Shown here piece after piece: positions 7,354-36,870 of a DNA stretch of 64,000 nt. Under the pieces are notes generated by a model. The model saw only the letters and a program-made list of their open reading frames with translations, made no database searches and had not been told where the DNA came from. This DNA comes from a virus: positions 1-64,000 of the IMG/VR virus record IMGVR_UViG_3300019776_000212. One strand, written 5' to 3'. Both the position numbers and the translations under genes were made by a program. Every line of letters begins with the position of its first letter. Position 1 is the first letter of the stretch.

Positions 7354-7384
7354 GGCCCTGCTCACGCGGGGCCATTTTTACGCC
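7354..7384 (+). repeat. dispersed 31-bp element, copy 2
   Basis: GGCCCTGCTCACGCGGGGCCATTTTTACGCC. Confidence 0.9.
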
Positions 7385-7403
7385 TGAATTAAAGGAGCAG
7401 TAG

Positions 7404-7895
7404 ATGAACACTCTTGGCATGAAGTATCAGAAACTCCCACTTTACGAGACCGCTTGCCGTATGGCAGTTAAATGGCACTCTGAGCAGACGTATGGAGATA
7501 GTGGTAAGCCTTACATCTACCACCTTGTGTGTGTAGCTCGAATTGTAATGGCTCGTAACTCTCACCTTCCTGACGAACAGCTTGATAAGCTGATGACACT
7601 TGCCATGCTTCATGATATTTTGGAAGACACCGAGTGCGATCTGTTCCACTTCCAAGAGAGTGGCATTCCAATCGAGATCGGCATTGCTGCTGTGGCTATC
7701 ACCAAACAAGAGGGAGAGAAGAAGCGCACCTATCTCAAGCGCTGTGCAAATGATTCGCTTGCACTGGAAGTGAAGATTTGCGATACTCTCACAAACTTGG
7801 AGCACAGTGTAAAGGCCCGGTCCTTTAAGCGTATTGACAAATACGCTGATCAACTCCGTTATCTGAACGAACGTCAACGACAGGAGCAGAAATGA
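7404..7895 (+). CDS. HD-domain hydrolase, SpoT/Mesh1-like small alarmone hydrolase family
   Basis: H..Q..GKPYIYHL, MLHDILEDT, VKICD..N. Confidence 0.8.
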   Translation: MNTLGMKYQKLPLYETACRMAVKWHSEQTYGDSGKPYIYHLVCVARIVMARNSHLPDEQLDKLMTLAMLHDILEDTECDLFHFQESGIPIEIGIAAVAITKQEGEKKRTYLKRCANDSLALEVKICDTLTNLEHSVKARSFKRIDKYADQLRYLNERQRQEQK

Positions 7896-8482
7896 GCATC
7901 ACAATCAAAGACGAAAGCACTGTGTTCTTCACCAGTGACCTGCACTTCCACCACAAGAACATCGTGGAATACTCGGGGCGCCCTTGGACAACTGAAACAC
8001 AGACCGAGGAAATCATCAAGCGTTGGAATGGTCGAGTAGGTCCAACTGACCACGTGTTCCACCTTGGGGATTTCAGCTTCTCCAGCTACAAACAGATTGG
8101 TCGTGTAACTGAAATCATCCGCGAGCTTCAAGGTGTACACTACTACATCAGCGGAAACCACTGCGACCATAAGATGTGGCGTGAGATTGGGGCTAAAGAG
8201 TTTCCTTGGGTAGAGTATGTTGGCCCGTATCTGGAAGCCCGCATCGGCGAAAATCGTCAGAAGGTGTGCATGTTCCACTATCCAATGGAGATTTGGAACG
8301 GTATGCACCACGGTGCTTGGCACCTGCACGGCCACTGCCACGGCTCTTTGCCAGCAGTTGGAAAACGTTTGGACGTTGGTCTTGACAACCACCCTGACTT
8401 CCAAGTATTTTCCTTCGAAGAAATTAAAGCACATATGGACAAACAGCCAATTGTGATCAAAGACCGCCACACAGGAGAATGA
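7892..8482 (+). CDS. calcineurin-like metallophosphoesterase
   Basis: TSDLHF, HLGDF, GNH, LHGHCH. Confidence 0.9.
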   Translation: MSITIKDESTVFFTSDLHFHHKNIVEYSGRPWTTETQTEEIIKRWNGRVGPTDHVFHLGDFSFSSYKQIGRVTEIIRELQGVHYYISGNHCDHKMWREIGAKEFPWVEYVGPYLEARIGENRQKVCMFHYPMEIWNGMHHGAWHLHGHCHGSLPAVGKRLDVGLDNHPDFQVFSFEEIKAHMDKQPIVIKDRHTGE

Positions 8483-8751
8483 TGATGATTAAAGTACGTG
8501 AAGCAGCAAAAATACTGGAGTACTTTTAATGGCTAAGCTCGTAATTGAAACCGGGATGCAACTCCCACCAGAGCTTGGGCCGGGAGTCCTTATGATCCAC
8601 AATGAACAACCTCCGATGGTCGTGATTGTTGACGAGGTGGTGGACGGAGGTGCTGCGTTCTTTGGGACAGCTCTTGATACTGGCCACCGAATCGAGTATG
8701 ATGCAAGCCAATTCAAACCATTCATCGGTAAACTGACTCTGGAGCAATGAC

Positions 8752-9666
8752 ATGAAACTGCATTTGAGCATGTACGCTGACCTGATTAGCCAAGGGCTTG
8801 TGAAGGCAAAGAAGGACGAGTCCACCGGACGAGTAATCATCAAGTATGCACGTAAGGTGTTCTACAACAACCTCTGGTTGCAACACCCTCTGTTGGTAGA
8901 GGCTCGCGGGCATGTCTTCGATGCAGAAACTGGCGAACTGATTGTGGCACCTCCAACCAAGGTGTTCAACCTGCACGAGAACGGAACGACTGTAGACCCA
9001 GCCTATCTTGTTGATGTTGTTCGTAAGGTTAACGGCTTCTTGGCCTGCGTGACGTTCATTGATGGTGAAATGTTGGTATCTACAACTGGCAGCCTTGAGA
9101 GTGACTTTGTACACATGGCACGTAAGCATCTCGATAAGTTGGACTGGGCTGCAATCGGGAAGCCAGAAGGCCAGACTTTCCACTTCGAGATTTGTGATGA
9201 AGGTGACCCACACATCACAGCCGAGATTCCGGGTGCATACCTCATCGGGCAACGTGCACATAGCGATCTGTCCTCTGCAATGGAGTTCCATCTGGACGAC
9301 ACTGCATATCATCTGAAAGCCATGCGACCGGGGTGGTGGTCTTGCTTGTTCGGTAAGGTTCTGGAAACTTTGAAGGATGTGAAGCACGAAGGTTTCATGA
9401 TTCGTCACGGCATCACCAGTGAAACTCTGGTGAAGCTGAAAAGCCCACACTACCTCACTAAGAAATTCCTGATGCGAATGAATAGCCTCAAGGTGGTTCA
9501 GATGTTCACAGACAAAGAGGGATTCCTGAAAACGGTTGATGAAGAGTTTTACAGCGTGGTTCACAAGATTACACGATACCACACCCTTGAGTCGTGGGGT
9601 GCAGCAATGGACGACCAAGAACGTCGTCGTTATATCGAAGATTACTTTGAGGATCGTCAATCATGA
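8752..9666 (+). CDS. RNA ligase (Rnl1-like)
   Basis: EARG, PPTKVFN, RKVNG (motif I variant), FEI, HEGF, KLKS. Confidence 0.8.
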   Translation: MKLHLSMYADLISQGLVKAKKDESTGRVIIKYARKVFYNNLWLQHPLLVEARGHVFDAETGELIVAPPTKVFNLHENGTTVDPAYLVDVVRKVNGFLACVTFIDGEMLVSTTGSLESDFVHMARKHLDKLDWAAIGKPEGQTFHFEICDEGDPHITAEIPGAYLIGQRAHSDLSSAMEFHLDDTAYHLKAMRPGWWSCLFGKVLETLKDVKHEGFMIRHGITSETLVKLKSPHYLTKKFLMRMNSLKVVQMFTDKEGFLKTVDEEFYSVVHKITRYHTLESWGAAMDDQERRRYIEDYFEDRQS

Positions 9667-10058
9667 GCAAAATGTTGTACCTTATCCGTGGCTTGCCCGG
9701 TAGCGGCAAGTCCACCTTCGCAGAAAACTTGGCTGATGCCCTTGGGGCTCACCATTTTGAAGCAGACATGTACCATATTCGTGATGGAGTCTACGATTGG
9801 AAGCCTGAGAACGTAAAAGCTTCACATGAGTGGTGCCAGAGGTGTGTCAGGTCGTCTATGGCTGGTGGTCACAACGTAGTGGTAAGCAACACCTTCACAA
9901 CTCCAAAAGAATTGGAACCCTACCTTGACTTGGCAATCCAGAACAGGTATCTTATCACCTCGTTGATCGTTGAGAACCGGCACGGTGGAGTAAACGTCCA
10001 CGACGTACCACAGGAAACCCTCGACAAGATGCGTAACCGATTCACTATTAAGCTTTAA
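9663..10058 (+). CDS. P-loop kinase (AAA_33/polynucleotide kinase-like)
   Basis: RGLPGSGKST, VSNTF, HDVP; directly after the RNA ligase. Confidence 0.85.
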   Translation: MSKMLYLIRGLPGSGKSTFAENLADALGAHHFEADMYHIRDGVYDWKPENVKASHEWCQRCVRSSMAGGHNVVVSNTFTTPKELEPYLDLAIQNRYLITSLIVENRHGGVNVHDVPQETLDKMRNRFTIKL

Positions 10059-10069
10059 AGGAGAGTAGG

Positions 10070-10909
10070 ATGATCTTTTACGAAATCAAAGATGTTAAAA
10101 CTCACGTAGACGTGGAAGTGCGTAAAGATGGCAGCGTCAACGTGAATATCAACGTTGGTAGCATGGAGCCACAATCTCACTGCTACAAGCACTCGATCTA
10201 CGTGACCGCACACCTGAATAGCGTCATCATGCAGGTGGCCCTGCCTCACGTGTTTGAAGCTCTTCGTCACTACTACCCTTATGCTGAGTTTTGCCTTGAA
10301 CTGCCATACCTTCCGTATGCCCGTCAGGATCGTCGTTGCAATGCGGGTGAAGCAGCAGGTGCCAAAGTGTTTGCACAGCAAATTAACGCGCTTGGTTGTC
10401 AATCAGTTGTAATCACTGACCCGCATTCGGAAGTGATCTCACAGTTGATCAATGGTGCGCAGGTGTGTCAACAGCATGAAGTATTCGGTCACATCAACTT
10501 TGCTGACTACATCATCGTAGCCCCTGACCTTGGAGCCTTGAAGAAGGCTGAGAAGTTTGCCTCGTATGTTGGTGCACGTGGTGTTGTTGGGTTCCACAAA
10601 ACCCGTGACATGGCCACTGGTGAAATCACCAACCATGTCCTGATCAACCACAATGGCGTGATCATCGGTCAAGGCGACAAGTTCTTGGTGTTGGACGATA
10701 TCTGTGATGGTGGCCGCACCTTCGTAGGTGTTGCCCACGAGCTTCGCAATTTCAGCCCTGAACGTCTGGAGTTGGCTATCACACACGGCATCTTCTCCTA
10801 CGGGGTTGAGGTGGTGACTGACGTGTATGACAAGGTGTACACCACAAACTCGTTCATCACTGGCCTCACCAACCGCAACAATCTGAAAGTTATTAAATCT
10901 TTCGAATAA
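10070..10909 (+). CDS. ribose-phosphate pyrophosphokinase-like protein (probable NARP1 Adps)
   Basis: PYLPYARQDRR, DPHS, APDLGA, LDDICDGGRTF, THGIFS. Confidence 0.88.
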   Translation: MIFYEIKDVKTHVDVEVRKDGSVNVNINVGSMEPQSHCYKHSIYVTAHLNSVIMQVALPHVFEALRHYYPYAEFCLELPYLPYARQDRRCNAGEAAGAKVFAQQINALGCQSVVITDPHSEVISQLINGAQVCQQHEVFGHINFADYIIVAPDLGALKKAEKFASYVGARGVVGFHKTRDMATGEITNHVLINHNGVIIGQGDKFLVLDDICDGGRTFVGVAHELRNFSPERLELAITHGIFSYGVEVVTDVYDKVYTTNSFITGLTNRNNLKVIKSFE

Positions 10910-24509: not shown

Positions 24510-25145
24510 TTATTGGTACAACGACAAATCATCTTTAGAAGCGTAATTGATTTCAAAGCGGATCATGCTGAATCCAGCTGGAGTGGTTCCACCATCTCCT
24601 TGCCACTCTTCTGCACCACCAACACCAGCCTTCACCTTAAGCCACACTTGTTCTGGCATGATGAAGTAGTGTTGCCCAACTCCATCAATACTCCATTCCA
24701 AATACTGTGTGCACGCTTCATCAAGATAAAGGGCGACGGAGCTGTTCCCTGTTGGGCTTTCCTCTGAGCTAGTCCAGTTGCCTCCACTCAAATACGAGTA
24801 CCCAGCATGTGCACCAGCCATATACTCAGGTGCGTGCCACTTCAACACAAACTCTGTACCTTCTGGCGAGTCTTTTGGCAAGTGGTATGTGTTACGCCAG
24901 TATGTGTGCATGTAAGTGTTGCTTGGCGTCACCGACACAGGGAGACCTGTATCACCATCAAACACAACCATGTCATCCTCAGATCCACCACCCATGTAAT
25001 TCTGCATATGCACAATGGCCTGCCTTACATAAGGGTTTGGGATGGCTGATTCACCTGAACCGTCTAGGGCAAAATACCCTTCCTTAACAGCACCCAATAC
25101 ACCAAGCTTGGCTACTGATTCATACTGTGATAGTCTGTTAGACAT
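24510..25145 (-). CDS. hypothetical protein (stand-alone, possibly virion-associated)
   Basis: 211-aa ORF with GGAG RBS, opposite to the upstream operon. Confidence 0.7.
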   Translation of the reverse strand: MSNRLSQYESVAKLGVLGAVKEGYFALDGSGESAIPNPYVRQAIVHMQNYMGGGSEDDMVVFDGDTGLPVSVTPSNTYMHTYWRNTYHLPKDSPEGTEFVLKWHAPEYMAGAHAGYSYLSGGNWTSSEESPTGNSSVALYLDEACTQYLEWSIDGVGQHYFIMPEQVWLKVKAGVGGAEEWQGDGGTTPAGFSMIRFEINYASKDDLSLYQ

Positions 25146-25562
25146 TCTTTCTCTCCATAGAAAATAGGTTTACTTCATGTAAACCCTTTACCAAGTATAC
25201 CACATCCCGCCCCAGAGAGGCAACACCTCTTTTGCACGGAAATCCCAATCCCCGCCAGAAAAATAATCACTTCGTTCACCTTACCTCTGGCCCGCCCTCG
25301 GAAAGTAATCTTGTGAGAAGTGTGCGGCTTCTGTGTGAGGGTCAGAAAGTAATTCACTGCGTTCTTACTTTCTTGTGGTTCAAATTGGTGAGAATCTTGC
25401 GCGTCCCCCGAGGTGCTTAACCCATCACCCACACCCCACTTCGATCCCGTAGCAATCTGAAAATAATTAGCAAGCTCAGCAACTGATGGAATTAATGTGT
25501 TCTCCATCTGGGCACGGATTGTGCATTCCATTCACACCCGGCCTGTCAAACCTTCCACACTG

Positions 25563-25574
25563 TTAGCTTGCTAA
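25563..25574. promoter_or_regulatory. SlyA/MarR-type palindrome TTAGCAAGCTAA
   Basis: ttagcttgctaa is the reverse complement of the SlyA consensus; related sites at 25467, 28455, 36308, 36350. Confidence 0.5.
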
Positions 25575-25659
25575 TCAACAATCAGAAGCTGCACACAACA
25601 GGGCTTATTATTGTGAGGACGTTCCACCACTGTGAGGGTGTTCCACTAGCGGAAAGTGT

Positions 25660-25675
25660 TGTTCCACGTGGAACA
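25660..25675. promoter_or_regulatory. parS: chromosomal-type parS site
   Basis: Perfect palindrome TGTTCCACGTGGAACA; GTTCCAC half-sites at 25621 and 25640. Confidence 0.75.
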
Positions 25676-25860
25676 CTGTGCACCCAGCAAACCCTATCAA
25701 CACTACCCCAAAACTCTATACTTATTTTTGTATAGGATTGTGTATATAGAATTATGTATTAGCGACGCATAATATATAGAGGAACGTAGGTCTGTAATGT
25801 GAGGGTGTTTGTAACACTGTGAGAGGGTGTATTGACTGGTAGGGCGCATACTCTCAACCT

Positions 25861-25876
25861 TGGCACACCTTATGCA
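25861..25876 (+). promoter_or_regulatory. sigma54 -24/-12-like box
   Basis: TGGCACACCTTATGCA (GG-N10-GC). Confidence 0.45.
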
Positions 25877-26349
25877 GGGTACTATGTGTGCTGCCGCACA
25901 ATTATAGGCGCTAGAAAGGGGCTTCGCTTAGCACCCACGCTAGTCGCTCTCCGGGGCGTAGGGAGAAACAACCCATATAGCACGTTTTCGTAGTGTTTCA
26001 GCCCTTCTAACCGTAGGTTAGGCTAGTACCCTCAAAGCCACAAACTACGTGGCTTACAGCCTGTTTTAGAGCCTTTCAAAGCGTATGCTTTGGGTAGTAC
26101 ATTCCTTATGCCTTTGGCATAGAATTTTGAGGTTTATTTAGGGTTTTTGTTATATTTGTTTATATCAATTGTAAGCATACAATGAGGGCAAACAATGGCC
26201 TATCGGCCAGCCCGAACATACCCCTATCGCTTCGCTTTCCGTGTACAACCCTTTAGAGCCAGATGGCTCTAGATATTGTGTCTCACTCAAAGCTTACGCT
26301 TTGATCGTGTACAAAGAAAAGCCCCACCTTGTTAGGGGTGGGGTAGTGG

Positions 26350-26619
26350 TCATGGAATCATGTCCTCTTGGAAATGTTTGGTTTGGAATTCGATGCTCTC
26401 AATCACTTGAGGGCTTGCACCGATGTTGTAACGCTTGATCCAATCTAACAGTTGTTGCTCATCACCCCAAAGGGCGTAGAACTCTTGATCTTTGGCTTGA
26501 GTGTTCTTGTCAGCTTCCACTTGAGTGTAGGCATGATCGATTACGTAGTCGCTGCACTCCGTCTTATCAGTGGCGAAGCTGTAGGCACACACTAGGGCGA
26601 TGGTTGCAAAGATGGACAT
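26350..26619 (-). CDS. early-region protein with an N-terminal signal peptide
   Basis: MSIFATIALVCAYSFA; GGAG RBS; terminator downstream at about 26312-26345. Confidence 0.6.
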   Translation of the reverse strand: MSIFATIALVCAYSFATDKTECSDYVIDHAYTQVEADKNTQAKDQEFYALWGDEQQLLDWIKRYNIGASPQVIESIEFQTKHFQEDMIP

Positions 26620-27326
26620 TTCGAAACTCCAATGTTTTCTACTGCCAAAGCCCCAGTTAAGGGGCTTGTGGGTGGCGGGGTTTGCAATCAGCTCACGTAA
26701 ACCTTGTCTCCCGCATAGGTGGTCGCGTTGCTCGCGAGGCAATCCAAGGTGCTGACAAGCATAACGCCAGACACGATGCTTACCGTGCCGTCATTGTTGA
26801 CGCAAAAGATCGTGGAGTAGGAGACTTCGCCAGCAGGGATTGAGCATGTAGTGACTACGGCGCCTTCATGGTTCATGGTTGCTGCTTTCATCGTCTTGCC
26901 CTCCGGGGCTTTGATCGTTTCGATAGGTGCCATTCTACAGTGTTGGAATGAGCTGTCAACACCTAAATTCCACTTTTATTACGCCCTCTTCGTGCGTAAT
27001 CTTGACCAACGAAGCTATGGCGCTCCCATCGTGCTTGGCGTTGCTTTGGTGACCAATAGCCGTCAAGATACATGACAATCACAACAACTACAGACATCAG
27101 AAGCATAAAGCAGATTAGTACCATCAGGAATGGCTGCCAACTTGTACACATTATTTAGCTTCCTTAGCTTGCTTCCAAGCTTTGTCTAGGGCTTTGGTGT
27201 TACGTTGCATGACGATGGTTTCTTTGGTGTACAGGTCACGAAAGATGCGTTTGATGGTCATGGCGTTTGTCTCTGTGTTGGTGTGAGGGCATTCTATCAA
27301 GTGTGAATGCCCTGTGCAACCTTTGT

Positions 27327-27767
27327 TTATGCCTTTTTCAGGCTTTCGAGCAGTTGTTTTTGTTGCTCTACTTCGTACTTGAGCTGGCTGTATTTGCCAA
27401 CCACTTCACCCTTTTCACCCAAACCGTTTTGAACGCGGCTTGCGTAGTATTCAGCGTCTTCAAGGTGCATGTAGATTGGTGCGTTGAGAACGTTGGTAGA
27501 GTAACCCAGTTCGGCGTTACTGCAAATACGACCTTCACCAATCACGATGATGAAACCTTGTACTTGCTCATTGTCGAGCAATGCAGCTTCAAGCTTGGCA
27601 ATATAACTTTCGGTGTCGGTGATGATTTTAGCGAATGGGCTTTGCATGGCTTTGTACTCTTTGTGGAAGTGTTTCAGGCAGTGTTTAAAGATAGTGGCGT
27701 AGACACCACCCTCAGCGTTTGCCATTACGGTGCGGGTTAGTTCGTGTGCTTTGGCCATTACGTTCAT
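27327..27767 (-). CDS. early hypothetical protein
   Basis: Own promoter and AGGA RBS. Confidence 0.7.
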   Translation of the reverse strand: MNVMAKAHELTRTVMANAEGGVYATIFKHCLKHFHKEYKAMQSPFAKIITDTESYIAKLEAALLDNEQVQGFIIVIGEGRICSNAELGYSTNVLNAPIYMHLEDAEYYASRVQNGLGEKGEVVGKYSQLKYEVEQQKQLLESLKKA

Positions 27768-27867
27768 TGCTTTACTTCCTAGTTGTGAAAGGCTTTGTGC
27801 CTTTCGATGGGGTTATTCTATCAAACTGAACAACCCCGTCAACACATTTATGCATCTATTTTCAAAT

Positions 27868-28257
27868 TTATTCCACTACCAATGACCATGTTGCACGGTC
27901 ATTACCCTGTACAGTGTAGCCACCTTCACGCTCTACCCAATGCACAGGCATAGCGCTATCAGCTTCACGGGTAAGGCATACAGAGTCAAACACGGCAACG
28001 CCTTTAACATCATGCGGGCACTCGTACACACGCTTAGCTTTGAGCCACAACAGGCAACCATAATGACGGATTACATCACCCTCTTTGAGCTCATGAGTAT
28101 TGCGGTTTACAGTACCAGCTTTAGCCAGCTTGGCTAGGCGCTTGCCATGGGAGTGGCACAGGCTTAGAGCTGCACAGAACGCTACCTTGTAAGGCATCGG
28201 ACGCTTAGAGATCAGTTTGCGGGCTTGTTTGTGGGCTTCTTTCATGACGTTGTACAT
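27868..28257 (-). CDS. early hypothetical protein
   Basis: N-terminus similar to that of 27327-27767. Confidence 0.65.
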   Translation of the reverse strand: MYNVMKEAHKQARKLISKRPMPYKVAFCAALSLCHSHGKRLAKLAKAGTVNRNTHELKEGDVIRHYGCLLWLKAKRVYECPHDVKGVAVFDSVCLTREADSAMPVHWVEREGGYTVQGNDRATWSLVVE

Positions 28258-29572
28258 TGTGTGCATCCTGTTTGGTTTAGTGTGTCTTGCTATCCCCAAT
28301 CCGTGTATGCCCGGAAGCCTATTCCTTGGGGGAGAACTCGAAGTCATTTAAGCGTTTTAGTCTTCGATGCCGCTTTATGGTGTCCATTCTACAGGGATGG
28401 ATAGTGGAGTCAACAAGTATTTTCAATTATTTTCGTTAGGGTGCTAATGGGTGATTAGCTAGCTAAGTATTTTCAATTGGGATGAAAAAGCCCGCTCAAG
28501 GCGGGCTATTGTGATTACAGCGGTTTGAGCTTGTCGTCGGGCCCCCACGTACCACTCTCAAAGAACTTATCAGACTGGTTATCTGCGTACTCCCAACCTA
28601 AGTAGAAGCACTGCCACTTACCTTGCCACTTGGCGTACAGGTTGTTATCTGCTTTGTGTGTTGGTTCAAGCTGTTGCCAGCTAAGCTCTTCAAACACTTT
28701 AGGAACGACGTTGTAACCCTCTGATACTTGAGGGCAGCAGGTGCCGGAGCGCGTATATTCGGCGTCCACGCTGATCACCTTGCCGCTCTCACAATGGAAG
28801 TGTGTGACGTTGATTGAACTGGTGTCCACGCCAACAACAGTTTCACCAATGAAAGCCTCAAAACCACGCTCAATCTTTTGCATTTAGAAACCCCCATACG
28901 AAAGCATATTGAAGAACCAAACAATGGCACCAGAGCACCACACACCAGAGCCAAAACCTTTACTGACCATGCAGGTGACACCAGAGACAACAAACATTAC
29001 ACAAGACAAGAGAAGCATATATCACCTCACTAAATTAGATGTTTTGACCATATAGGCCGGGACGTTATCGCTTGGCTCATATGGCCAGCCTTGCTTTGCC
29101 CATGCCTCAAAGCGTTCTTTGATTTGTTTTGCATGGGCTTTGTCTAATGGTGTGGCCCTCACGAAGGGCGGATTACCGGTCTTTGCCACTGTCAGCCTCA
29201 GGTTGTGCTTTGCACGGCTATCATGGTGCAACCTGATTTCAAGCTTCACGGCTTCACCTTGAGCAACAGGCGGCAGCCGTAGGCGTAAACGTCCCCACCA
29301 ATCTCGCCACGGTCGTAACAATCCACAAGATCACGTATGGATTGGCGCCACACTTCGATGAATACGGGCTGACCTTTCATTGCTTCAAATTGCTGGATTA
29401 GGTGATGATCGTACATTAGTTAAGCTCCACGTGCCATTTGCCATTGTGTTTGAAGAGTTTGCAACGTTGACCAGCTTGGGCATGCGCCCCGGCCACTAGC
29501 CATGCTTCTTTGTAATCCATTCCTGCCGCTCCGTTTGTGTATGGCCCCATTTTACAGGGGCCAGCTTGAGAG

Positions 29573-30175
29573 TCAAGCGTTTTCGTGAATGAATTCTTCC
29601 ATATCCACTGTGCGAAGCTCGAAGTCATACAGCGATTCAATCAAGGCGTAGTTACTGCCAGCTTCGTGCATAATATCAACAGTGGTGGCCAAACCTTGCG
29701 GGATCTCTTCCTTATTGAACAGTGTATTATCCCAGACGCAAAGCAGGGCTGGGATACAGTCCCATTGATCAAAGGTTTCAGTGCGGATCTCTACAATCCA
29801 AGATGGATCAAAGCTTTCACATGCAATAGAACGTGCGTTAGGCATACGGTCGCTGTCACCATGGCAACTATAATCAAGATCTAGTTTGTCGTCTGGAATG
29901 TCACACACCAAAACAACAACCAAACCACCTTGACCTTTTGCAGCGTATTGCAGTCGGGCAGCTTCGAATGACTGGTTTGCAGCAGCCGTGCGGCAATCGT
30001 CAGCCTCGTCCTCTGGGCAGTACCCGTGATCACCGCCTGTAGAGTTGGCGTCGTAAAAGTACATGATGCCGTCGTTATCGCTGACAGTCCAAGGGGCGTG
30101 GACTAGGCTCTTGCCTTCTTTGGACATGATAGCTTTGAAGCCTGCCAGTGTAGTGCCGTGGGTGACGATTGCCAT
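29573..30175 (-). CDS. early acidic hypothetical protein
   Basis: Own promoter; N-terminal THGT motif. Confidence 0.65.
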   Translation of the reverse strand: MAIVTHGTTLAGFKAIMSKEGKSLVHAPWTVSDNDGIMYFYDANSTGGDHGYCPEDEADDCRTAAANQSFEAARLQYAAKGQGGLVVVLVCDIPDDKLDLDYSCHGDSDRMPNARSIACESFDPSWIVEIRTETFDQWDCIPALLCVWDNTLFNKEEIPQGLATTVDIMHEAGSNYALIESLYDFELRTVDMEEFIHENA

Positions 30176-30543
30176 GATACTCTGCCTTTTGGTGTAGGGA
30201 GCTTTGTGCTCCCTTGTGGCTGCCATTCTACGCTATCGGGGTGGCAAGTCAATAGGTCTATACAAAGAATCTGCATGTTTTGCTGCACAAGCTTTGATGG
30301 CCATATTCCACTCATAGCCCAGAAGGTTTTTAGTGCTTCTGACGCAGGCAAGGTAGATGCGCTTTGCCCTTTCGTGATCGGCGACTGGAACGTCTGGAGG
30401 GTTGGCCGGATTGAGTATTGAAAGCACAGCTTGCAAAGCAATCATGGCACCGCACAGTGCAAGGAATTCGGCCACACGTTTGCAATAGTGGCCCACAATG
30501 AACTCCAGTTCGCTAACATCGGTAGGTTTCTTGCTCATATCCA

Positions 30544-30735
30544 TTAGCTGATCCCCATAAGAGCGTGCTTGCAATGACACTGCAGATTTTTGATTGTCCG
30601 ATGATCACTCGGGCTTCGACTTGCAAACACTGGCTTGGCCGCGTTTGGGTGTGTGAGTTTCAAATGCTTTCGATTGCTTTCGTCCACGGTCCAACCCGGT
30701 AGAGTTGCTTTGATTTCTTTAACCCACTTACTCAT
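30544..30735 (-). CDS. HicA-like small protein
   Basis: GW......KHLKLTHP....V..S.SPSD. Confidence 0.55.
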   Translation of the reverse strand: MSKWVKEIKATLPGWTVDESNRKHLKLTHPNAAKPVFASRSPSDHRTIKNLQCHCKHALMGIS

Positions 30736-31076
30736 ACTTTCTCCTTATAACAGGCTGCACCTGCCTTAGTTTGATATTGTGAGGGATACCAACTTACACC
30801 CCACATGGTTAACATTGCTTGTAGTTGCCTTGTATATCCCTTTCCACGCATCGCGGGGCAAGTTTCTTTATAGTAGATTTCTCCGTCTGGCATTACAATT
30901 ATACCAGAGAATCCTACACTGTGCGCAACTGATTTAAAACCTACAACTCTATGCCAGCCCTTGTGATCCTTGAAAAGCCTGATAACACTGGCGTCTGGCA
31001 TGGTGGCTTGCTTTACCAGACGCTCAAGCCCAGTGGTGCTGCACTGGTTAAGCGCAGCATATACACTTTTGTTCAT
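30732..31076 (-). CDS. GNAT-like acetyltransferase
   Basis: PAMRGKGY acetyl-CoA-binding motif, T.AG..Y. Confidence 0.5.
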   Translation of the reverse strand: MNKSVYAALNQCSTTGLERLVKQATMPDASVIRLFKDHKGWHRVVGFKSVAHSVGFSGIIVMPDGEIYYKETCPAMRGKGYTRQLQAMLTMWGVSWYPSQYQTKAGAACYKEKV

Positions 31077-31291
31077 ACAACCTTATCCACCAAATCATCA
31101 TCAAACCACCACTTACGAGTTATGTGGCCCTCCACACTTTCAAGTGTAAGTTCGTTACTGTGAGCGTACCCGTAATCTTTACGTTCGATTTCAATGATAC
31201 GTAATTTAAACTTACATGGTCTGCTATCCCACAGCATTTGCACGTTAACTTCCTCACCAACTTTAAGATTTTGAACTTTAACTTTCATAAC

Positions 31292-32005
31292 TTACCCCTT
31301 GGCAATCAAAGATACATGTTTCTTGCTTACACCATGGGCTGTAAAGCCGATGATATAATACCTTTGGGACACTTGGCAAAGCCCGCAAGTTGCACAGCTT
31401 ACTTTGTCGTTGTATTCAGCCGGGCAACGTACAACTTTGTTGCCAGCTGGGGTGTAGCGTACCTTTGGATTATCCTCAGCCAATGGCATGATAACGACAA
31501 CCGGGGCGATATTCAAAGCTTTCAATTCGTCGGCATGTTGCATGTTGTTGCCGGAAAGGTTGACAGTGAAACCTTCGATGTTTGCGGACTTGATAACCTC
31601 TCGGTTCAAGTTGGCTACAGTGTCACCGTGGCCGCCAATCACATTGTAATGCGTGTAAGTGAAACCCTTGCGGCCTTTGTTCGCCCTTACCAGCTCGCCA
31701 ACCTTAGAGGCGTCGAGAGTGTCAACACCGTTGAATGTTTTGAAGCCCGGCAAGTCACCAGCCTGATTATGGCGCCACAGGCTACCCTTGCGAATGGCAC
31801 GCACTGCCAGTAGGAAGTGTCCCCAGTCGGTGCCACGTTTGCCCTCAGTCACTGCCTTCCAGTGGATGTTAGACGGACCGCCCGAGGCGTAGCAACCCTT
31901 TGCCTTTAGAGGGCAAGCATCTGGGCAAGTGTCTTTGTGAGAAGTGGACACTGGAATTGGACCGGTCTTAACGTTGCTGGAAACTGGAGTCAGATGGTAG
32001 TTCAT
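31292..32005 (-). CDS. Cys-rich conserved phage protein (gp88-like, possibly Fe-S binding)
   Basis: TCPDACP...GCYA, RHNQAGD, FTYTH, CPA...SCATCGLC. Confidence 0.6.
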   Translation of the reverse strand: MNYHLTPVSSNVKTGPIPVSTSHKDTCPDACPLKAKGCYASGGPSNIHWKAVTEGKRGTDWGHFLLAVRAIRKGSLWRHNQAGDLPGFKTFNGVDTLDASKVGELVRANKGRKGFTYTHYNVIGGHGDTVANLNREVIKSANIEGFTVNLSGNNMQHADELKALNIAPVVVIMPLAEDNPKVRYTPAGNKVVRCPAEYNDKVSCATCGLCQVSQRYYIIGFTAHGVSKKHVSLIAKG

Positions 32006-32531
32006 TGCGTCGTTCCTTTCAGTGGCTTGGGGCTTACCCCCTTTCTTGACGCCCATTCTACAGGATTGGTTTAGGACGTCAAGCACCTGTGCGAATTATT
32101 TTAGATATTTTTCTGTATAAACCAAAGCACAACCACACACCCCAGAGCCCACTTGAACTGGCTTGGGGTAAGCCTTGGCATCGCCATCCGTACACGGGCA
32201 GACCATGGCACCTTGTGCGTGCAATCAATCTGCACAGGCTCAGGCCCTTTGAGCTTGGCGATACGCTTAGCTAACGCCTGCTGCCTACCCTCTAAGATTG
32301 CCCTAAGGTCAAAGTAGTCATCCGCATCCATCTGGCCAGACTGAGACTCAAGCTCTGACAACAGCTTGTCTAAGTGGTCTGCCTGTTCTGCCGTTGGGTC
32401 TATCCGATAGCGTAGGGGCTTTGGTGGCTTGGGCTCTTTTGCATTCTCAACCCAACTGGGCAAGCGTTGACGTCTGGCCATACATAGTCCTCAGGTGTAA
32501 AAATGCCCCGGTGTTAACCGGGGCTTGGGCA

Positions 32532-32831
32532 TTATCGAGAGTTCAGCAGGTAGTTGATATGTTCGGCGGTTACCCAACCGGCCTCCACCTTTGGTGAGAC
32601 TTTAAAACCGTCCGTTGCATTGCACACGCTGGCATTGCTGACCCCCAAGGCTTCGACAAGGGACATGTAAATGTCCCCTTTCACAGGGTGAACCGAGCAT
32701 CCTGTCAGAATGACAAGCAGGGCCATCTGTTCAGCCGTAAGGCCCAGAATGTCGAAAGTTTCTGGCTTGGCTTCTGAGATAACCACCAACTCGGTTACCG
32801 CAGCACGGGCTTTGTTCTTGACTACTTCCAC
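32532..32831 (-). CDS. early protein, paralog of 32846-33157
   Basis: AVTE.V...EAKP.TFD..GL...Q.A.L shared. Confidence 0.7.
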   Translation of the reverse strand: MEVVKNKARAAVTELVVISEAKPETFDILGLTAEQMALLVILTGCSVHPVKGDIYMSLVEALGVSNASVCNATDGFKVSPKVEAGWVTAEHINYLLNSR

Positions 32832-32845
32832 ATTCTTTCTCCTTG

Positions 32846-33157
32846 TTAAAACTCTTTGCCGAATTCCGCCACGCAGTTATCCACGTGGGTTTTAGTGATT
32901 TCAAGATTCTGGCCTCCGTTACTGGGACTCTTGTTCAGGTCGAAAAAGAAGTTATTGGGAAGTCCCGCCAACTTCCTCATACCCTCATAAAGGGCATAGC
33001 TCTGCTTGTTGTCACCGCAAGTGCGTGCAACGGACATGATCAACACGGCCAACTGCGCTTCACTCAAACCTGTGAGGTCAAAGGTAGCGGGCTTGGCTTC
33101 TGTTACAGTTACAATTTCAGTTACTGCTGGAGTTGCTTGATGTTTGGTCAGTTGCAT
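32846..33157 (-). CDS. early protein, paralog of 32532-32831
   Basis: Shared N-terminal motif; GGAG RBS. Confidence 0.7.
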   Translation of the reverse strand: MQLTKHQATPAVTEIVTVTEAKPATFDLTGLSEAQLAVLIMSVARTCGDNKQSYALYEGMRKLAGLPNNFFFDLNKSPSNGGQNLEITKTHVDNCVAEFGKEF

Positions 33158-33629
33158 AATTACTCCCCTTGTTCAGTTTGGCGGCGAATGTCACGGCCAG
33201 CACGTTTCGACTTGTCAGCTTTACGCAGTTCTTTCTGTGCTGCGCGGTATTCACGGTCGCTTGCGAAGTCCGAGGCTTTGAGTTGACGCATTTTGTTTCT
33301 TCCTTTGTGTGTGTAGAGGTGTGTAGTATGTCTGCTATAAGGACTGCTGTCAAGCAATCCCTATAACAAATTTTCTACTTACGTGGTGCCAGTGTGAGGA
33401 CACCAGCATACTGCCCGGTATTGGCAAGTTGCACCTGCCAGCCCAAGCTTTTACGGCACACCCCAGCAGCGCGGAGGGCTTCATAGATGGCACTCATGCC
33501 GCCACCGTAGTTGAACTGACCCACCACATTAAGCAGCAATTCAGCTTCATGTGCGGACAGATTGAGTGTTACGCTGCCAGCTTCCACAACTACTGTACGA
33601 TCAGGGTTTTTGATTGCAGTTGCCATGTC

Positions 33630-33941
33630 TCAACCCTCTTTAGTTTGTTTGTCGAATCGATACTCAATACCGGCTACCTTTGCATAGGTGAGGGTGTCGA
33701 GATTGATAGTACGGAATGCGTCAGCCGCACCAACATCCGCTACAGTGTAAAGCTCTGGCTTGTGTGCAGTAGTGGACTTTTCACGCTTGTTCTTGTCACC
33801 GCTTGCGAGCATACGCTCTACAAACTTCTTGCACTGCATCTTACGGATGCTGCCGTCTTTCTTCACGAATTCAACAGCAAACATCTGACCTTTTGCAGAG
33901 TCGAGAATTGCGCGCTTACGTTCGATAGTTACGACTGCCAT
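33630..33941 (-). CDS. WYL/SH3-like phage protein
   Basis: F.VEFVKKDGSIRKM...D....FRTI. Confidence 0.55.
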   Translation of the reverse strand: MAVVTIERKRAILDSAKGQMFAVEFVKKDGSIRKMQCKKFVERMLASGDKNKREKSTTAHKPELYTVADVGAADAFRTINLDTLTYAKVAGIEYRFDKQTKEG

Positions 33942-34894
33942 TTTTTTTTTGTGTTACTCCGTTGCTTTCTGATGTTTGTCATTCTACAGCGTTGTGGCTA
34001 GGTGTCAAGCTTTTATTTGTGCCTTATTGCCCTCGGTTGTACAGTTGTTTGATCAGGACTTCGAACCACTGCACTTTGTAGGCATGGCATTTTGGGCAGG
34101 TAAGGCCACCTTCTGCCCTCATCTGTTTGAACTCTGGGTCAGTGCGAGCCAGAAGGCCACTAATGGAGATTGAGGTGTTCACCCCGCCCACTTTGTGTTC
34201 ATAGTGGGCGCCCATTTCATTTGAGATTTCACGCTTGGCGTTTTCACGCTCAGCGTTCGACAACTTACCTTCTGCAAACATACCGTCAAGTACGTGGCAC
34301 AGGTAGCTGCCCGGTCTGTAGGCTGGGCTTGAAAGGGCGGCACGCAGTACCTTGGAAGTGCGGCGAACTTTTGGGAGCGCCATTACTTAGCCCCCTTGCG
34401 GATCACCAGAACGGGTGAGCCACTGATATTGTGCACGGTGCTCATCACTTCTTTACGTTGGCGGCTGCTGGCGTGAACGTCTACACCCCAGCGACGTACG
34501 GCCATCGCACCGTTATCTACAGCTTTGCCGAACGCACGGGCAGCAGAACGGGATTTGAATTGAATTTGCATGATACTCTCCGTTGTAGGCTTGATTGCCT
34601 TGTGTGGTAAAGATTCTAATCAATGCTGCTAACCTTGTCAACAGCATTTGTTAAAAGCTTTACTCAACCGTACACCAATTGTCTGTTCCGTAGTACTGGT
34701 GCACGAACCATTCGCAATCGTCGAGGAAATCGGCCACTCCGTGCTCTTCCCAGTGAATCACGATCTTACCATCTTCACCACGTTTGATCGTATATACGAT
34801 CTCATGGTCGTCACCTTGTGCAGTGAAGCGGTAACCGTCTGGTACATGGCTATTGTCAATGTTTCGTGTCATGTTGTCAACTCCTTACTCAGAT

Positions 34895-35383
34895 TCATTT
34901 GTTTTCTACCCAGAAAAGGCGGTCAAGTGTTTCGTCCTTTGGACGGCTCAGCAGGTAACGGCCTGCCATATTGGTGCGGCGGTTCGTTGTCTTGCTAAGC
35001 AGCTCTACTGTACCATCTGGATTTTTGATTGCCAAGCGGTATTTGTTAGGCTTTACAACAAGGCCAACGTCTGGCCCCTTCCAACGTGCAACAGGGTGTG
35101 CACCAGTTTTAAGGCACCACTGTTTCCACACTGGCCCGTGACCGTGACCCGGCCCTGCCAGAGCGTGTGCCACTTCATGCTTGATCGTATCCACTACCAG
35201 CTCTTCGCTGTTGTTCTCAACGTAGAAGGTGCCAAGCTCGATTTGCTTCTTAGTGTAGCAGCACTGGCCCAGACGGCGAGTGGTGCGATTATTGAATACA
35301 CCTTTCCAACCTTGAGCCCGTAGTCCCCACTTTTCCAGCTCTTGGATGAGGATGCGAGCCGCGTCTGCCTTATTCATTTGCAT
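34895..35383 (-). CDS. SprT-like zinc metalloprotease
   Basis: RLGQC, DTIKHEVAH, GHGPVWK. Confidence 0.85.
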   Translation of the reverse strand: MQMNKADAARILIQELEKWGLRAQGWKGVFNNRTTRRLGQCCYTKKQIELGTFYVENNSEELVVDTIKHEVAHALAGPGHGHGPVWKQWCLKTGAHPVARWKGPDVGLVVKPNKYRLAIKNPDGTVELLSKTTNRRTNMAGRYLLSRPKDETLDRLFWVENK

Positions 35384-35429
35384 CTCCGTTGTCTTGATGA
35401 GGTATATTCTACAGGGTTCTGATAAGCTG

Positions 35430-35789
35430 TCAACCGATATCAAAGAAGATTTCGTCATTCTCTGCATAGATGGAACGTGGCCCCATCGCCTTTGCAATCT
35501 CGTGAAGCTTGTCGCCAACGTCACCCCAACCACGATCCCAAAAACCCGTCCCGTGCCCGTTACGGGAAAGCCAGAGGTTGTGACCGATATCCGACCAATC
35601 AAGGTCAAGACGTTCAAGGATTTCAGCAGCATCGGAAACAAACTTTGCAGCAACTTCCTTTGCCTCTTCGATTGCTGCGAGTGACCAGCTTGCACAAGTG
35701 TAGTCACCTTCACACCCGTCAGCCCATTCAGCAGTTTCACGATACTGAACAGCGATTGCGATGATTGCGGTGTCGTTGTAATGCTTCAT
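35430..35789 (-). CDS. conserved phage early protein
   Basis: GHNLWLSRNGHGTGFWDR motif; first gene of the early module. Confidence 0.7.
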   Translation of the reverse strand: MKHYNDTAIIAIAVQYRETAEWADGCEGDYTCASWSLAAIEEAKEVAAKFVSDAAEILERLDLDWSDIGHNLWLSRNGHGTGFWDRGWGDVGDKLHEIAKAMGPRSIYAENDEIFFDIG

Positions 35790-35906
35790 GTGATTTATTC
35801 CGTGTTCGTTTCTGATGTGGTCATTCTACACCGTCTAGAGAACACGTCAACAACTATTTTCAAAAAGATTTAGAGAATCTACCTATAAAGGAACGCGCAC
35901 ACGCGT

Positions 35907-36233
35907 AGCAAATACAATGCCAACATTTGTTTGCACAAAGGCTTGTTTTCGCTGTTTGTGCCTAGTATAATGGCCACAGCGGGCAACGGAGTACGGAGTA
36001 CGGAGTACGACCACCGGAGACAAACAGGGAGGGTGCCCGAGATTTAGTGTGGCACGGACTTTGCTAGGTCATAAAAATGAATGTGATTTGGTAGTTGACA
36101 GGGTATTCCGTTGGTGTAAACTGGCAGCACGTTTCAAAGCTGGCCCTCGACGGGGTCGGTGCCCATTCGCCTAAGCGCAGCCAATGCGAGGCTTGTTTGT
36201 GCCTGCCGTCTTTATGTTGGCACGAGACTTGCT
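35907..36233. promoter_or_regulatory. three sigma54 -24/-12 consensus boxes
   Basis: TGGCATTGTATTTGCT (35907-35922, -), TGGCACGGACTTTGCT (36050-36065, +), TGGCACGAGACTTGCT (36218-36233, +). Confidence 0.65.
35977..36060 (+). ncRNA. candidate GGA-rich (Rsm/Csr-binding) small RNA
   Basis: Downstream of TTGTTT-N17-TATAAT; six GGA motifs; CGGGCA/TGCCCG closing stem. Confidence 0.35.
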
Positions 36234-36870
36234 AGCTCCAAAGTGTGACTCGATCCTAGTTTCTGGTCGAAAACGTGGAACACTCAGGAATCTCCGTGGA
36301 ACAATGCTTAGCTCGCTAACTAAAATAGTTAGCCTCCTATCGAAATTGAGTAGCTCGCTAACTATCTCAACCCTCCCAGAAATATCTCCGCTCCCCCTGT
36401 GAAAAACTGTCCAGTTCCCAAATTTTAAAATCGCCCCAGTTCTAAAAATCTGTCGAGTTCCTAATTTTCCACAGACAAAGAAAAGCCCCACACTTGGCGG
36501 GGCTCCTTCTTTCAATGCAGTTGTTCACGAGGTTCCTGACTACCTCTTGCTGGCTTTCTTTACACTGTTGTCTACAGCACCTGCGGATGCTGGTATACCG
36601 ATGAACAGCCAGCACACCACGAAGAACAGGCGGCCTCCTGAACTCCAGAGCGTCAAGTCCCAGCTGAAAGGGATAAAGCCTACAACACCCCACAGGAACA
36701 GGAATACACCAAACAGCACTGAAACAAAGATAGCAAACTCACGCATCACAACTCTCCTTTTAAAATCAAGCTTATAGGGCCACCCCTAGAATCGCACGGA
36801 AAATAATCGCAGCGAATAAATAAGGGTGGCACCAATAATCGCACGGAAATAATTACAGTGCAACCAATAA

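Follow-up and report, generated by a model that had tools for sequence, protein, structure and literature searches.

Genome ends have been mapped in three relatives of the phage described here. PhageTerm identified a direct terminal repeat (DTR) in phiPsa315, whose record places the two 529-bp copies at 1-529 and 98211-98739, 391 bp past the last early gene. The end repeat of UNO-G1W1 spans 551 bp by self-alignment (544 bp in its paper, from a Nanopore pipeline), and run-off sequencing gave a 1190-bp repeat for PaP1. In Pseudomonas aeruginosa, GTTCCAC half-sites are bound by ParB, which represses parS-adjacent genes, and published work on phage YuA sets a precedent for phage promoters of the sigma-54 type.

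The window, a stretch of 64,000 nucleotides, belongs to a virulent, roughly 96-kb Otagovirus-like Pseudomonas myophage (genome size 96,211 bp). An earlier note had listed putative host-protein sites in two non-coding blocks flanking an early gene module and had suggested that the module may be a long terminal repeat with the blocks at its ends. Every motif listed for the two blocks is present where the note placed it. The left block covers about 25146 (or 25532)-26349 and the right block 35790-36441, together 1,856 bp or 1.9% of the genome. Apart from the short motifs and half of a terminator (a 17-mer), the blocks share no extended homology. We consider it fairly probable that the left block contains a DTR with the genome ends, that the right block is an internal control hub, and that cis-sites read by the host extend over both.

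Predicted genome ends and the early module

The left block and the module contain the following features (coordinates in the window).

25410-25422, no strand: outer DTR boundary motif, GAGGTGCT followed by TAACC; predicted physical terminus at 25418
25418-25928, no strand: predicted DTR of about 511 bp, homologous to the DTRs of phiPsa315 and UNO-G1W1
25460-25478, no strand: AAAATAAT, then palindrome TTAGCAAGCTCA, 50 nt from the predicted end
25510-25525, plus: sigma-54-like box GGGCACGGATTGTGCA, imperfect, a weak match
25563-25574, no strand: exact palindrome TTAGCTTGCTAA, one of three exact TTAGCNNGCTAA sites in the genome
25621-25675, no strand: host-type parS cluster, GTTCCAC at 25621 and 25640 and parS at 25660-25675, phased 19 and 21 bp
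25766-25781, plus: CGCATAATATATAGAG box, the family-wide DTR element CGCAYWATATATA
25861-25876, plus: sigma-54-like box TGGCACACCTTATGCA, imperfect, pointing inward
25921-25932, no strand: inner DTR boundary motif, GCTTCGCT followed by TAGC
25929-26321, no strand: hairpin-rich non-coding spacer from DTR to early module
26322-26343, minus: intrinsic terminator closing the early module, with a 17-mer in common with the terminator at 36481-36507
26350-35789, minus: early gene module of small ORFs, at least 13 strong sigma-70 promoters (TTGAC-N16/17-TAGAAT)
28436-28466, no strand: TTAGC palindrome pair TTAGGGTGCTAA and TTAGCTAGCTAA, just upstream of the early promoter at 28413

The 13-mer of the outer boundary spans the annotated DTR edge in phiPsa315 and lies 11 nt outside the repeat in UNO-G1W1. 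XD2 and KoPa-4 have it too, and UAVern, ventosus and JG004 have variants of it. In 6/6 sequences (window, XD2, KoPa-4, UAVern, phiPsa315 and UNO-G1W1), AAAATAAT follows TAAC at a spacing of exactly 42 nt, and JG004 also has the boundary motifs at this spacing. At the other edge, the inner motif occurs in the window, XD2, ventosus, phiPsa315 and UNO-G1W1; the phiPsa315 DTR terminates after GCTTCGCT, that of UNO-G1W1 4-12 nt earlier. An anchor at 26051-26130 of the window sits 110-124 bp inside the inner DTR edge of these two phages. In the relatives, the mapped DTR is found some 390 bp past the 3' end of the module, a position that matches the left block only. Homology to these relatives thus predicts both physical genome ends within the left block, on a linear genome with a short, non-permuted DTR, where terminase would cut between GCT and TA(A/G)C. 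The contig of this phage closes on a 20-bp overlap, so its termini are given here as predictions. The UAVern and PE09 records are also linearised inside the left block.

Several elements of the left block keep their place in relatives. A TTAGC palindrome occupies the matching +50 position in XD2 and KoPa-4; UNO-G1W1 and UAVern carry a perfect sigma-54 box at the position of the 25460-25478 palindrome, and in ventosus such a box is located 54 nt from the predicted end. The window, XD2, ventosus and UAVern have one copy each of the element CGCAYWATATATA; phiPsa315 has two or three copies and UNO-G1W1 has three. XD2, KoPa-4, ventosus, UAVern and UNO-G1W1 have a plus-strand TGGCAY-N5-DTGCA, or something close to it, in the inner half of the DTR or left block; the phiPsa315 counterpart of the 25861 box is a looser, shifted match. 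The only two AAAGC-N-GCTTT palindromes of the genome (26078 and 26289) both fall in the 25929-26321 spacer and recur in phiPsa315 and UNO-G1W1. An Rfam search of this spacer gave no match.

We call the module early because of its 13 or more strong sigma-70 promoters. It is syntenic in XD2, KoPa-4, ventosus, UAVern, phiPsa315 and JG004. Among the ORFs tested, one is SprT-like, one belongs to DUF7227 and the remainder fall in unknown-function PHROGs. This 9.4-kb minus-strand unit would be the host-takeover region, transcribed by host sigma-70 RNA polymerase from its many promoters toward the genome end.

Host-type motifs in the two blocks and in relatives

The perfect 16-bp parS at 25660-25675, TGTTCCACGTGGAACA, is identical to the parS of P. 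aeruginosa and P. putida (PMC4368675, PMC7022226) and is the sole site within three mismatches in the 96,211 bp scanned. We obtained expected counts from first-order Markov shuffles of the genome and assessed concentration in the blocks by a binomial test. In the genome, parS within one mismatch was observed once (0.00 expected), the strict sigma-54 pattern five times (0.48 expected) and TTAGCNNGCTAA three times (0.07 expected). Inside the two blocks lie 6/28 genome copies of GTTCCAC (p 1e-5), 4/4 copies of the 9-mer half-parS TGTTCCACG (p 1e-7), three of the five strict sigma-54 boxes (p 7e-5) and 4/7 palindromes within one mismatch (p 5e-6).

The earlier list of palindromes gave correct positions, with two adjustments. 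Exact TTAGC-N2-GCTAA copies stand at 25563, 36308 and 28455, the last of which had gone unlisted; those at 25467, 36350 and 28436 have one mismatch, and 36329 is weaker, with two. The sigma-54 boxes are likewise where they had been placed, with 25510 and 25861 imperfect and 35907 not conserved. The genome has just two perfect copies of TGGCAC-N5-TTGC, at 36050 and 36218 on the plus strand.

Of 13 related genomes, 10 have host-type parS with no more than 1-2 mismatches, at one to five sites each, mostly in DTR, spacer or intergenic early DNA; reversed-pattern controls gave 0. Within one mismatch, XD2, KoPa-4, ventosus, UAVern, phiPsa315 and PE09 have it in the left block or DTR. The scan found none in UNO-G1W1, JG004 and Bobbio, so parS can be dispensed with and does not belong to packaging. 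In phiPMW, three copies of a centre-variant site, TGTTCCACATGGAACA, hint that a reader other than ParB may be involved. Ten relatives have 42 strict sigma-54 boxes between them, vs 2 in controls. Both motif types are kept in relatives that infect other Pseudomonas species.

Promoters, small RNAs and repeats of the right block

The right block and its borders contain the following features.

35823-35850, minus: first early promoter TTGACG-N16-TAGAAT, -35 region invariant in 6/6 aligned phages
35907-35922, minus: sigma-54 box TGGCATTGTATTTGCT, facing the early module
35943-36048, plus: sigma-70 promoter (TTGTTT-17-TATAAT) and structured small RNA 1 with GGA repeats
36050-36065, plus: sigma-54 box 1, TGGCACGGACTTTGCT
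36095-36215, plus: sigma-70 promoter (TTGACA-16-TAAACT) and structured small RNA 2
36218-36233, plus: sigma-54 box 2, TGGCACGAGACTTGCT, with a conserved hairpin downstream
36274-36303, no strand: two 9-bp half-parS sites CGTGGAACA, 21 bp apart, GTGGAAC at 36275 and 36296
36308-36361, no strand: three TAGC-N2-GCTA-type palindromes at 36308, 36329 and 36350, in 21-bp phase
36396-36472, no strand: three iterons (CTGTCSAGTTCC type) with A/T-rich spacers between
36481-36507, minus: intrinsic terminator, perhaps bidirectional, of the minus-strand unit upstream

The core of the small RNA 1 region, at 36002-36056, is 84-91% conserved in 46 phage records, Pakpunavirus included. Small RNA 1 shows four compensatory base pairs; small RNA 2 shows two within a 9-bp stem and is 80% identical to ventosus. 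Conserved promoters and these compensatory pairs support putative plus-strand transcription of the block. Conservation in relatives extends to parS and to sigma-54 boxes 1 and 2, and stops short of the 35907 box, which is not kept in the five relatives aligned at that position. At the box 1 position, TGGCAY-N5-TTGC is also found in XD2, KoPa-4, ventosus and UAVern. In box 2, five phages have identical TGGCAC and TTGCT elements, each around a 5-nt spacer of its own. XD2, ventosus and UAVern resemble the window in having two tandem boxes of the same orientation, 168-180 bp apart, in the right block; in KoPa-4 one match is strict and the other partial. The TGGCA of box 1 could alternatively pair with a downstream TGCCA in four relatives, and the box may be partly an RNA or DNA hairpin.

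The half-parS pair is kept in XD2 and KoPa-4, and ventosus and UAVern have the palindrome ATAGCTCCCTAT instead. Palindromes 36308 and 36329 are partly conserved in five phages. The iterons, present in 6/6 phages, are the most conserved non-RNA stretch of the block and form a candidate origin or operator array. Overall, the right block would serve as an internal control hub of the early region, with tandem sigma-54-type promoters reading away from the early genes and across the protein-binding repeats.

Candidate readers and alternative explanations

The 10.9-kb module could instead be a long terminal repeat of the T5 kind, with a copy at each genome end and the blocks as its edges. It takes up about 11% of the genome and combines many strong sigma-70 promoters with small unknown genes, much like the first-step-transfer repeat of T5, and a collapsed repeat would assemble just as this contig does. 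However, the three end-mapped relatives have repeats of 0.53-1.19 kb (529, 551 and 1190 bp) that map to the left block alone, and we reject the long repeat, rating its chances as minimal. The boundary motifs of short-DTR relatives are conserved in the window, the blocks lack extended homology, and the packaged DNA would exceed that of relatives sharing this virion by about 9% in length. The idea that the module edges are physical ends thus holds by DTR homology for the left block; the right block is internal. T5 suggests a second parallel, since its repeat region 3 has an injection stop signal with host DnaA boxes. If the DTR end and the early module entered first, then ParB, sigma-54 polymerase and palindrome or iteron binders at the right block would pause transfer until early proteins were made. 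A conserved, repeat-rich, gene-free block 10.9 kb from a physical end that the early module adjoins would suit such a checkpoint. Yet the early genes point toward the genome end, no A1/A2/dmp-like genes were found among the ORFs tested, and promoters, small RNAs and a possible origin are ordinary explanations for the block. We regard a checkpoint with two-step entry from this end as quite improbable.

That the clusters are functionless chance matches in AT-balanced non-coding DNA seems very improbable. Sites 25510, 25467, 36329 and 35907, all imperfect, are weakly or not conserved, which speaks for chance. Against this stand the enrichment over shuffles, the concentration in 1.9% of the genome (p 1e-5 to 1e-7) and conservation across phages whose flanking DNA cannot be aligned; for parS, box 1 and box 2, chance is already contradicted. 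The motifs might also be real and read by phage proteins of unrecognised fold (an early repressor, small terminase or phage promoter-specificity factor), their likeness to host sites being convergence or coincidence. About 75% of genes in the family are hypothetical, and the annotations of relatives include a small HTH protein and another that is anti-sigma-like. Fixed positions swap motif types (palindrome or sigma-54 box at +50, half-parS or palindrome in the right block), and the triple variant of phiPMW fits as well. Nevertheless, we find phage readers rather unlikely: the 16-mer equals the host consensus, its variants (GGAACA vs GAAACA) mirror natural parS variation, and a conserved -24/-12 with a free spacer is the sigma-54 signature. 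The domain search of the phage genome found no ParB_N or HTH_ParB, and a search for sigma-54 and enhancer-binding protein genes or domains found none. Bobbio (Dickeya), the sole relative from a host order without chromosomal ParABS, has no parS, an argument weakened by two Pseudomonas phages that also lack it.

Because no phage protein is predicted as their reader, it is a reasonable proposal that these putative sites would recruit proteins of the host close to the genome end. For the sigma-54 boxes, the only candidate activator site is at 25793, where a CbrB-like match is weak and has two mismatches. The TTAGC-N2-GCTAA palindromes have the appearance of operators for some dimeric helix-turn-helix protein; the SlyA-type label once given to them reflects sequence resemblance and nothing beyond it. 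Beyond what is directly observed (motif positions, enrichment, conservation, DTR-boundary homology and the lack of phage ParB, sigma-54 and enhancer-binding-protein genes), host ParB and sigma-54 RNA polymerase most likely occupy the end-proximal 11 kb. The host-consensus parS and half-parS sites most likely load ParB, and the -24/-12 boxes most likely bind the polymerase. Our preferred guess is that ParB might modulate or silence transcription of the early region, or organise entering and replicating DNA, and that sigma-54 might give conditional non-coding transcription or stable closed complexes.

Genome ends and the predicted short terminal repeat

The window covers bases 1-64000 of a contig that is 96,211 bp long and was assembled as a circle. 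Comparing its ends revealed a single repeat, a 20-bp overlap, which we rejected as a terminal repeat because it is an assembly overlap. The nearest cultured relatives are the 95-101-kb Pseudomonas myophages XD2, ventosus and UAVern and the phiPsa374-like Otagovirus group, together with the P. putida phages KoPa-4, NoPa, Kassivere, Roomu-2 and Amme-3; the Pakpunavirus phages (JG004, PaP1) are more distant. Plus-strand genes in the window extend to approximately 24.4 kb. The early module, a run of small minus-strand ORFs at 26350-35789, lies between two gene-free stretches, the left block (from ~25146 or 25532 to 26349) and the right block (35790-36441). These ORFs sit behind at least 13 near-consensus sigma-70 promoters (TTGAC-N16/17-TAGAAT), indicating that host polymerase drives the module. 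Among the seven ORFs tested, including the largest, one is SprT-like, one matches DUF7227 and the rest belong to PHROGs of unknown function. None of the seven matched a pre-early gene of the dmp/A1/A2 type. No tRNAs occur near either block, and the sole Rfam match across 24-38 kb (E up to 1) was a sub-threshold Trp-leader on a terminator.

The earlier note proposed that the early module may be a long terminal repeat (LTR) with a genome end at each edge, which would make it a T5-type repeat of about 10.9 kb. Mapped termini in related phages point to a much shorter direct terminal repeat (DTR) confined to the left block. In phiPsa315, DTRs called with PhageTerm are annotated at 1-529 and 98211-98739, 391 bp past the last early gene; repeat lengths of 526-529 bp are reported for phiPsa374 and phiPsa315. 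In UNO-G1W1, assembled through a Nanopore DTR pipeline, the two ends are identical over 551 bases (544 bp in its paper). In PaP1, restriction mapping and run-off sequencing gave a terminal redundancy of 1190 bp with two unknown genes inside.

The boundary motifs of these repeats are conserved in the window, as laid out below (a caret marks the predicted cut).

Features of the left block, from the predicted end inward
25410-25422: outer DTR boundary motif GAGGTGCT^TAACC, also in XD2, KoPa-4, UNO-G1W1 and phiPsa315
Outermost part: 50-nt terminal element
+50 nt from the predicted end: palindrome TTAGCAAGCTCA; in XD2 and KoPa-4, too, this position holds a TTAGC palindrome
25563: second palindrome
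Up to 25660-25675: three GTTCCAC elements in the same orientation, spaced by 19 and 21 bp; the last belongs to the full parS at these coordinates
After parS: CGCAYWATATATA box, common across these related phages
25861: sigma-54-like box, pointing inward
25921-25932, after box 25861: inner DTR boundary motif GCTTCGCT^TAGC
25929-26321: spacer of ~390 bp with short hairpins, up to the early-module terminator

The outer motif takes variant forms in UAVern, ventosus and JG004, and the distance from its TAAC to a AAAATAAT box is exactly 42 nt in all six sequences compared. Additionally, the counterparts of an 80-bp anchor (window 26051-26130) in phiPsa315 and UNO-G1W1 are 110-124 bp inside the inner edge of the repeat. 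From the shared boundary motifs, the 42-nt spacing and the anchor position, we predict a 511-bp DTR at 25418-25928, with cuts at GCT^TA(A/G)C. Its position, with the late-side genes on one side and the 3' end of the early module on the other, would match that of the Otagovirus and Pakpunavirus DTRs, and it shares with them the boundary motifs, the terminal spacing and the internal CGCAYWATATATA boxes. Apart from the two genes inside the PaP1 repeat, the published descriptions consulted give only the presence and length of those DTRs and do not refer to parS, sigma-54 boxes or boundary motifs.

Homology to the relatives' DTRs thus upholds one half of the proposal, that the left block is probably a physical genome end. 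The other half fails: we found no evidence of an end at the right block, and, judged from the relatives' termini and the window's boundary motifs, the module does not stand whole at both ends as a T5-type LTR does. Were the repeat 10.9 kb long, the packaged DNA would also exceed that of the relatives by ~9%. We therefore reject the LTR mechanism. The layout itself, with a short DTR, an early module near the end and a control block, is ordinary for these phages, and the correction averts a wrong annotation.

Several other records bear on the ends. Those of UAVern and PE09 are linearised within the left-block homologue; no end repeat was found in UAVern, PE09 or JG004, so these are linearisation points only. 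The KoPa-4 record begins at the terminase gene and is uninformative. In phiPsa315, a further copy of the outermost 79 bp of the DTR, with its GAGGTGTTTAACC cut motif, is found ~120 bp outside the repeat (L010 645-723). A minus-strand ORF in the window (25175-25531, 118 aa) is probably not a gene, since it lacks any Pfam or PHROG match and crosses the predicted outer boundary at 25418; the neighboring 211-aa ORF (24510-25145) also has no match.

Within the hairpin spacer are the only two AAAGC-N-GCTTT palindromes of the genome (26078 and 26289). The same place holds four in phiPsa315 and at least two in UNO-G1W1.

parS sites without a phage-encoded ParB

Every motif listed in the earlier note stands at the position given there. 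The parS at 25660-25675 is identical over all 16 bp to the P. aeruginosa and P. putida sequence TGTTCCACGTGGAACA and is unique in the genome, even at up to 3 mismatches. This 16-mer is the chromosomal parS of Pseudomonas, with GTTCCAC/GTTTCAC as half-sites; P. aeruginosa ParB binds these half-sites and represses genes adjoining intergenic parS (PMC4368675, PMC7022226). We counted parS at no more than 2 mismatches in each of 13 genomes, with the reversed pattern as a control.

parS sites at no more than 2 mismatches in 13 genomes
Window: 1
XD2: 4
KoPa-4: 3
ventosus: 5
UAVern: 4
phiPsa315: 1 per DTR copy
PE09: 1
Bitten: 3
Pyxpy01: 1
phiPMW: 3, centre variant
UNO-G1W1: 0
JG004: 0
Bobbio (Dickeya host): 0

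The control returned 0 in every genome, and chance would yield ~0.01 sites in the 13 genomes together. Most sites are found within the DTR or spacer, or between genes of the early module; for instance, a common 487-aa gene has one 21 bp upstream of it in ventosus as well as in UAVern. The DNA flanking the sites cannot be aligned between phages. In phiPMW (KU862660.1, a Plaisancevirus of P. putida), the centre-variant TGTTCCACATGGAACA occurs at 15422, 20515 and 20735, with the same mismatch each time. We considered whether parS might be the terminase recognition site and rejected this, because UNO-G1W1 and JG004 lack the site yet have the same ends.

No ParB_N or HTH_ParB domain was found in the 96-kb genome, so any reader of parS would have to be the host's. 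The phage sites resemble Pseudomonas ParABS in the identical 16-mer, the same natural variants, the clustered half-sites and the intergenic location. They differ in residing on a virulent phage without parA or parB and, in some cases, in their distance of ~240 bp to a free DNA end, at which ParB clamps could slide off. Our literature search found no description of host parS on virulent Pseudomonas phages. Perfect parS turned up in more than 119 IMG/VR contigs; as blastn related none of them to the window phage, the scan is silent on this clade. Several large contigs among them (45-105 kb) have parS ~80-530 bp from a contig end (loci L020, L094, L086, L072, L074 and L080).

Sigma-54 boxes, palindromes and small RNAs

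The elements of the right block were delineated from a six-phage alignment.

Features of the right block
Minus strand: first early promoter, with an invariant -35 region
35978-36056, plus strand: small RNA 1, GGA-rich and structured, behind a TATAAT promoter; 4 compensatory pairs
36050, plus strand: sigma-54 box 1, after small RNA 1
36130-36215, plus strand: small RNA 2, structured, behind a conserved TTGACA-16-TAAACT promoter
36218, plus strand: sigma-54 box 2, followed by a conserved hairpin
Two CGTGGAACA half-parS sites, 21 bp apart, kept in XD2 and KoPa-4
Three phased TAGC-N2-GCTA palindromes
36396-36472: three CTGTCSAGTTCC-type iterons with A/T-rich spacers, conserved in six of six phages
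Block end: terminator

The block thus encodes plus-strand small RNAs. A 55-nt core of small RNA 1 is 84-91% identical in 46 phage records, including those of the Pakpunavirus phages JG004, C11 and PaYy-2; several of the 46 annotate the region as a hypothetical protein. In small RNA 2, a 9-bp stem shows 2 compensatory changes among five phages. The iterons are the best-conserved DNA element of the block in the six phages and are candidates for a replication origin or an operator array. No perfect DnaA box was found in our scan; two relaxed matches in the right block (36398 and 36465) are not conserved.

Sequences matching the sigma-54 consensus TGGCAC-N5-TTGCW, with GG and GC 10 bp apart, are perfect at 36050 and 36218, and perfect TGGCAC-N5-TTGC occurs nowhere else in the genome. 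For box 2, at the orthologous position in five phages, TGGCAC and TTGCT are invariant while the 5 spacer bases are different in each. Ten relatives contain 21 + 21 strict boxes, compared to 1 + 1 in controls. These cluster in the right-block homologue and near record ends or the DTR, JG004 and Bobbio included. In UNO-G1W1, UAVern and ventosus, a perfect inward box stands 51-54 nt from the end, in place of the palindrome. The expectation that the motifs would be conserved in relatives holds for parS and the sigma-54 boxes, and only in part for the palindrome; it does not hold for the minus-strand box at 35907, which is near-consensus (TGGCAT) and not conserved in the alignment.

No Sigma54_activat or Sigma54_DBD domain and no enhancer-binding protein was found in the phage genome. 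Our search for activator sites returned no NtrC-type site and one weak CbrB-like half-site pair, TGTAAT-N12-GTAACA with 2 mismatches, at 25793-25816, 68 bp upstream of box 25861; along with GGTGTTAC repeats in the homologous spacer of JG004, it is a weak lead to a carbon-status activator. YuA is described in a preprint as a virulent Pseudomonas phage that lacks its own RNA polymerase and has a host sigma-54-type promoter (Ceyssens 2008, as cited in bioRxiv 10.1101/2023.10.13.562163), which makes it a precedent. Compared with YuA, the boxes of this clade are clustered in the DTR and early control block, point into gene-free DNA and recur across at least three genera. We found no description of such boxes in the literature on RpoN with PaP1, JG004 or PAK_P3.

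The palindromes are less easily assigned. The SlyA/MarR operator consensus is TTAGCAAGCTAA, which the site at 25563 matches exactly on the reverse strand; sequences of this type occur at 25563, 28455 and 36308, and the sites form 21-bp phased arrays. Among five relatives, TTAGCNNGCTAA is exact only in XD2 and KoPa-4, with a looser TAGC-N2-GCTA pattern elsewhere. Any dimeric helix-turn-helix protein could be the reader.

These motifs are not randomly placed. Against shuffled sequence, TTAGCNNGCTAA was observed 3 times with 0.07 expected; allowing up to 1 mismatch, six of seven sites lie in the blocks or in the early intergenic promoter region at 28.44 kb. All four genome copies of the half-parS 9-mer TGTTCCACG are in the two blocks. 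Although the blocks make up 1.9% of the genome, they concentrate every motif class (binomial p 1e-5 to 1e-7). The claim that both blocks share one motif set thus stands for the short motifs, with the qualification that two palindromes (25467 and 36329) and both left-block sigma-54 boxes (25510 and 25861) match imperfectly. No longer homology between the blocks was detected by blast; they have in common only short motifs, parS halves and a 17-mer terminator half. That 17-mer, ACAAAGAAAAGCCCCAC, is identical in the terminators closing the early module (26311-26327) and preceding minus-strand unit (36475-36491). Elsewhere, eight GTTCCAC heptamers lie at window 1302-10591, all on the plus strand inside structural-region coding DNA, and the genome holds 28 versus ~15.6 expected from shuffles.

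Possible roles of the host-type sites

On either side of the early module stands a conserved non-coding hub, and one of the two holds the predicted terminal repeat. In that repeat and the early region, host-consensus parS and -24/-12 sigma-54 boxes are conserved and non-random and have no phage-encoded reader, which is new; the papers on these phages that we searched and consulted do not mention them. We infer that host ParB and the sigma-54 holoenzyme bind these sites, and recruitment of host proteins near the genome end is plausible. ParB might silence or time the early module, as its known spreading range would cover it. Alternatively, it might position genomes, or bring SMC onto incoming DNA or concatemers. 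For sigma-54, closed complexes or conditional transcription might act on the iteron region, as when an origin is activated, or produce non-coding RNA.

A more ambitious reading is that this clade of virulent Pseudomonas myophages deliberately seats ParB and sigma-54 RNA polymerase on the DTR, early module and control hub, using the sites as interchangeable docking pads at fixed positions. Through these pads the phage would govern how the first 11 kb enters, is positioned or is silenced, in a single-copy analogue of T5 first-step transfer. We consider this less likely than not. Motif types do swap at fixed positions: a palindrome or a sigma-54 box occupies +50 nt, and in the right block ventosus and UAVern carry a ATAGCTCCCTAT palindrome in place of the half-parS sites. 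Such swaps fit docking pads and equally allow phage-encoded readers.

The closest analogy is the T5 first-step-transfer region, with its 10.1-kb LTR, repeat regions 1-3 and an injection stop signal containing host DnaA boxes (bioRxiv 10.1101/866236). Both phages have a ~10-kb end-proximal block of host-takeover genes under host sigma-70 promoters, and conserved gene-free regions packed with repeats and palindromes matching the sites of host proteins. In both, the non-coding blocks are conserved while coding DNA is poorly so. Unlike that of T5, the window module is predicted to be single-copy with only ~0.5 kb terminally repeated, and its host sites are parS and sigma-54 boxes rather than paired DnaA boxes.

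For these related phages, the comparison yields predicted terminase cut sites, GCT^TAAC and GCT^TAGC. Phages with such host-type sites infect P. aeruginosa, P. putida, P. syringae, P. protegens and an Antarctic Pseudomonas, and cultured, genetically tractable pairs exist in phiPsa374 with P. syringae pv. actinidiae and KoPa-4 with KT2440. If ParB or sigma-54 polymerase does bind, these pairs would permit direct tests of how lytic phages use the chromosome-segregation and alternative-sigma machinery of their hosts.
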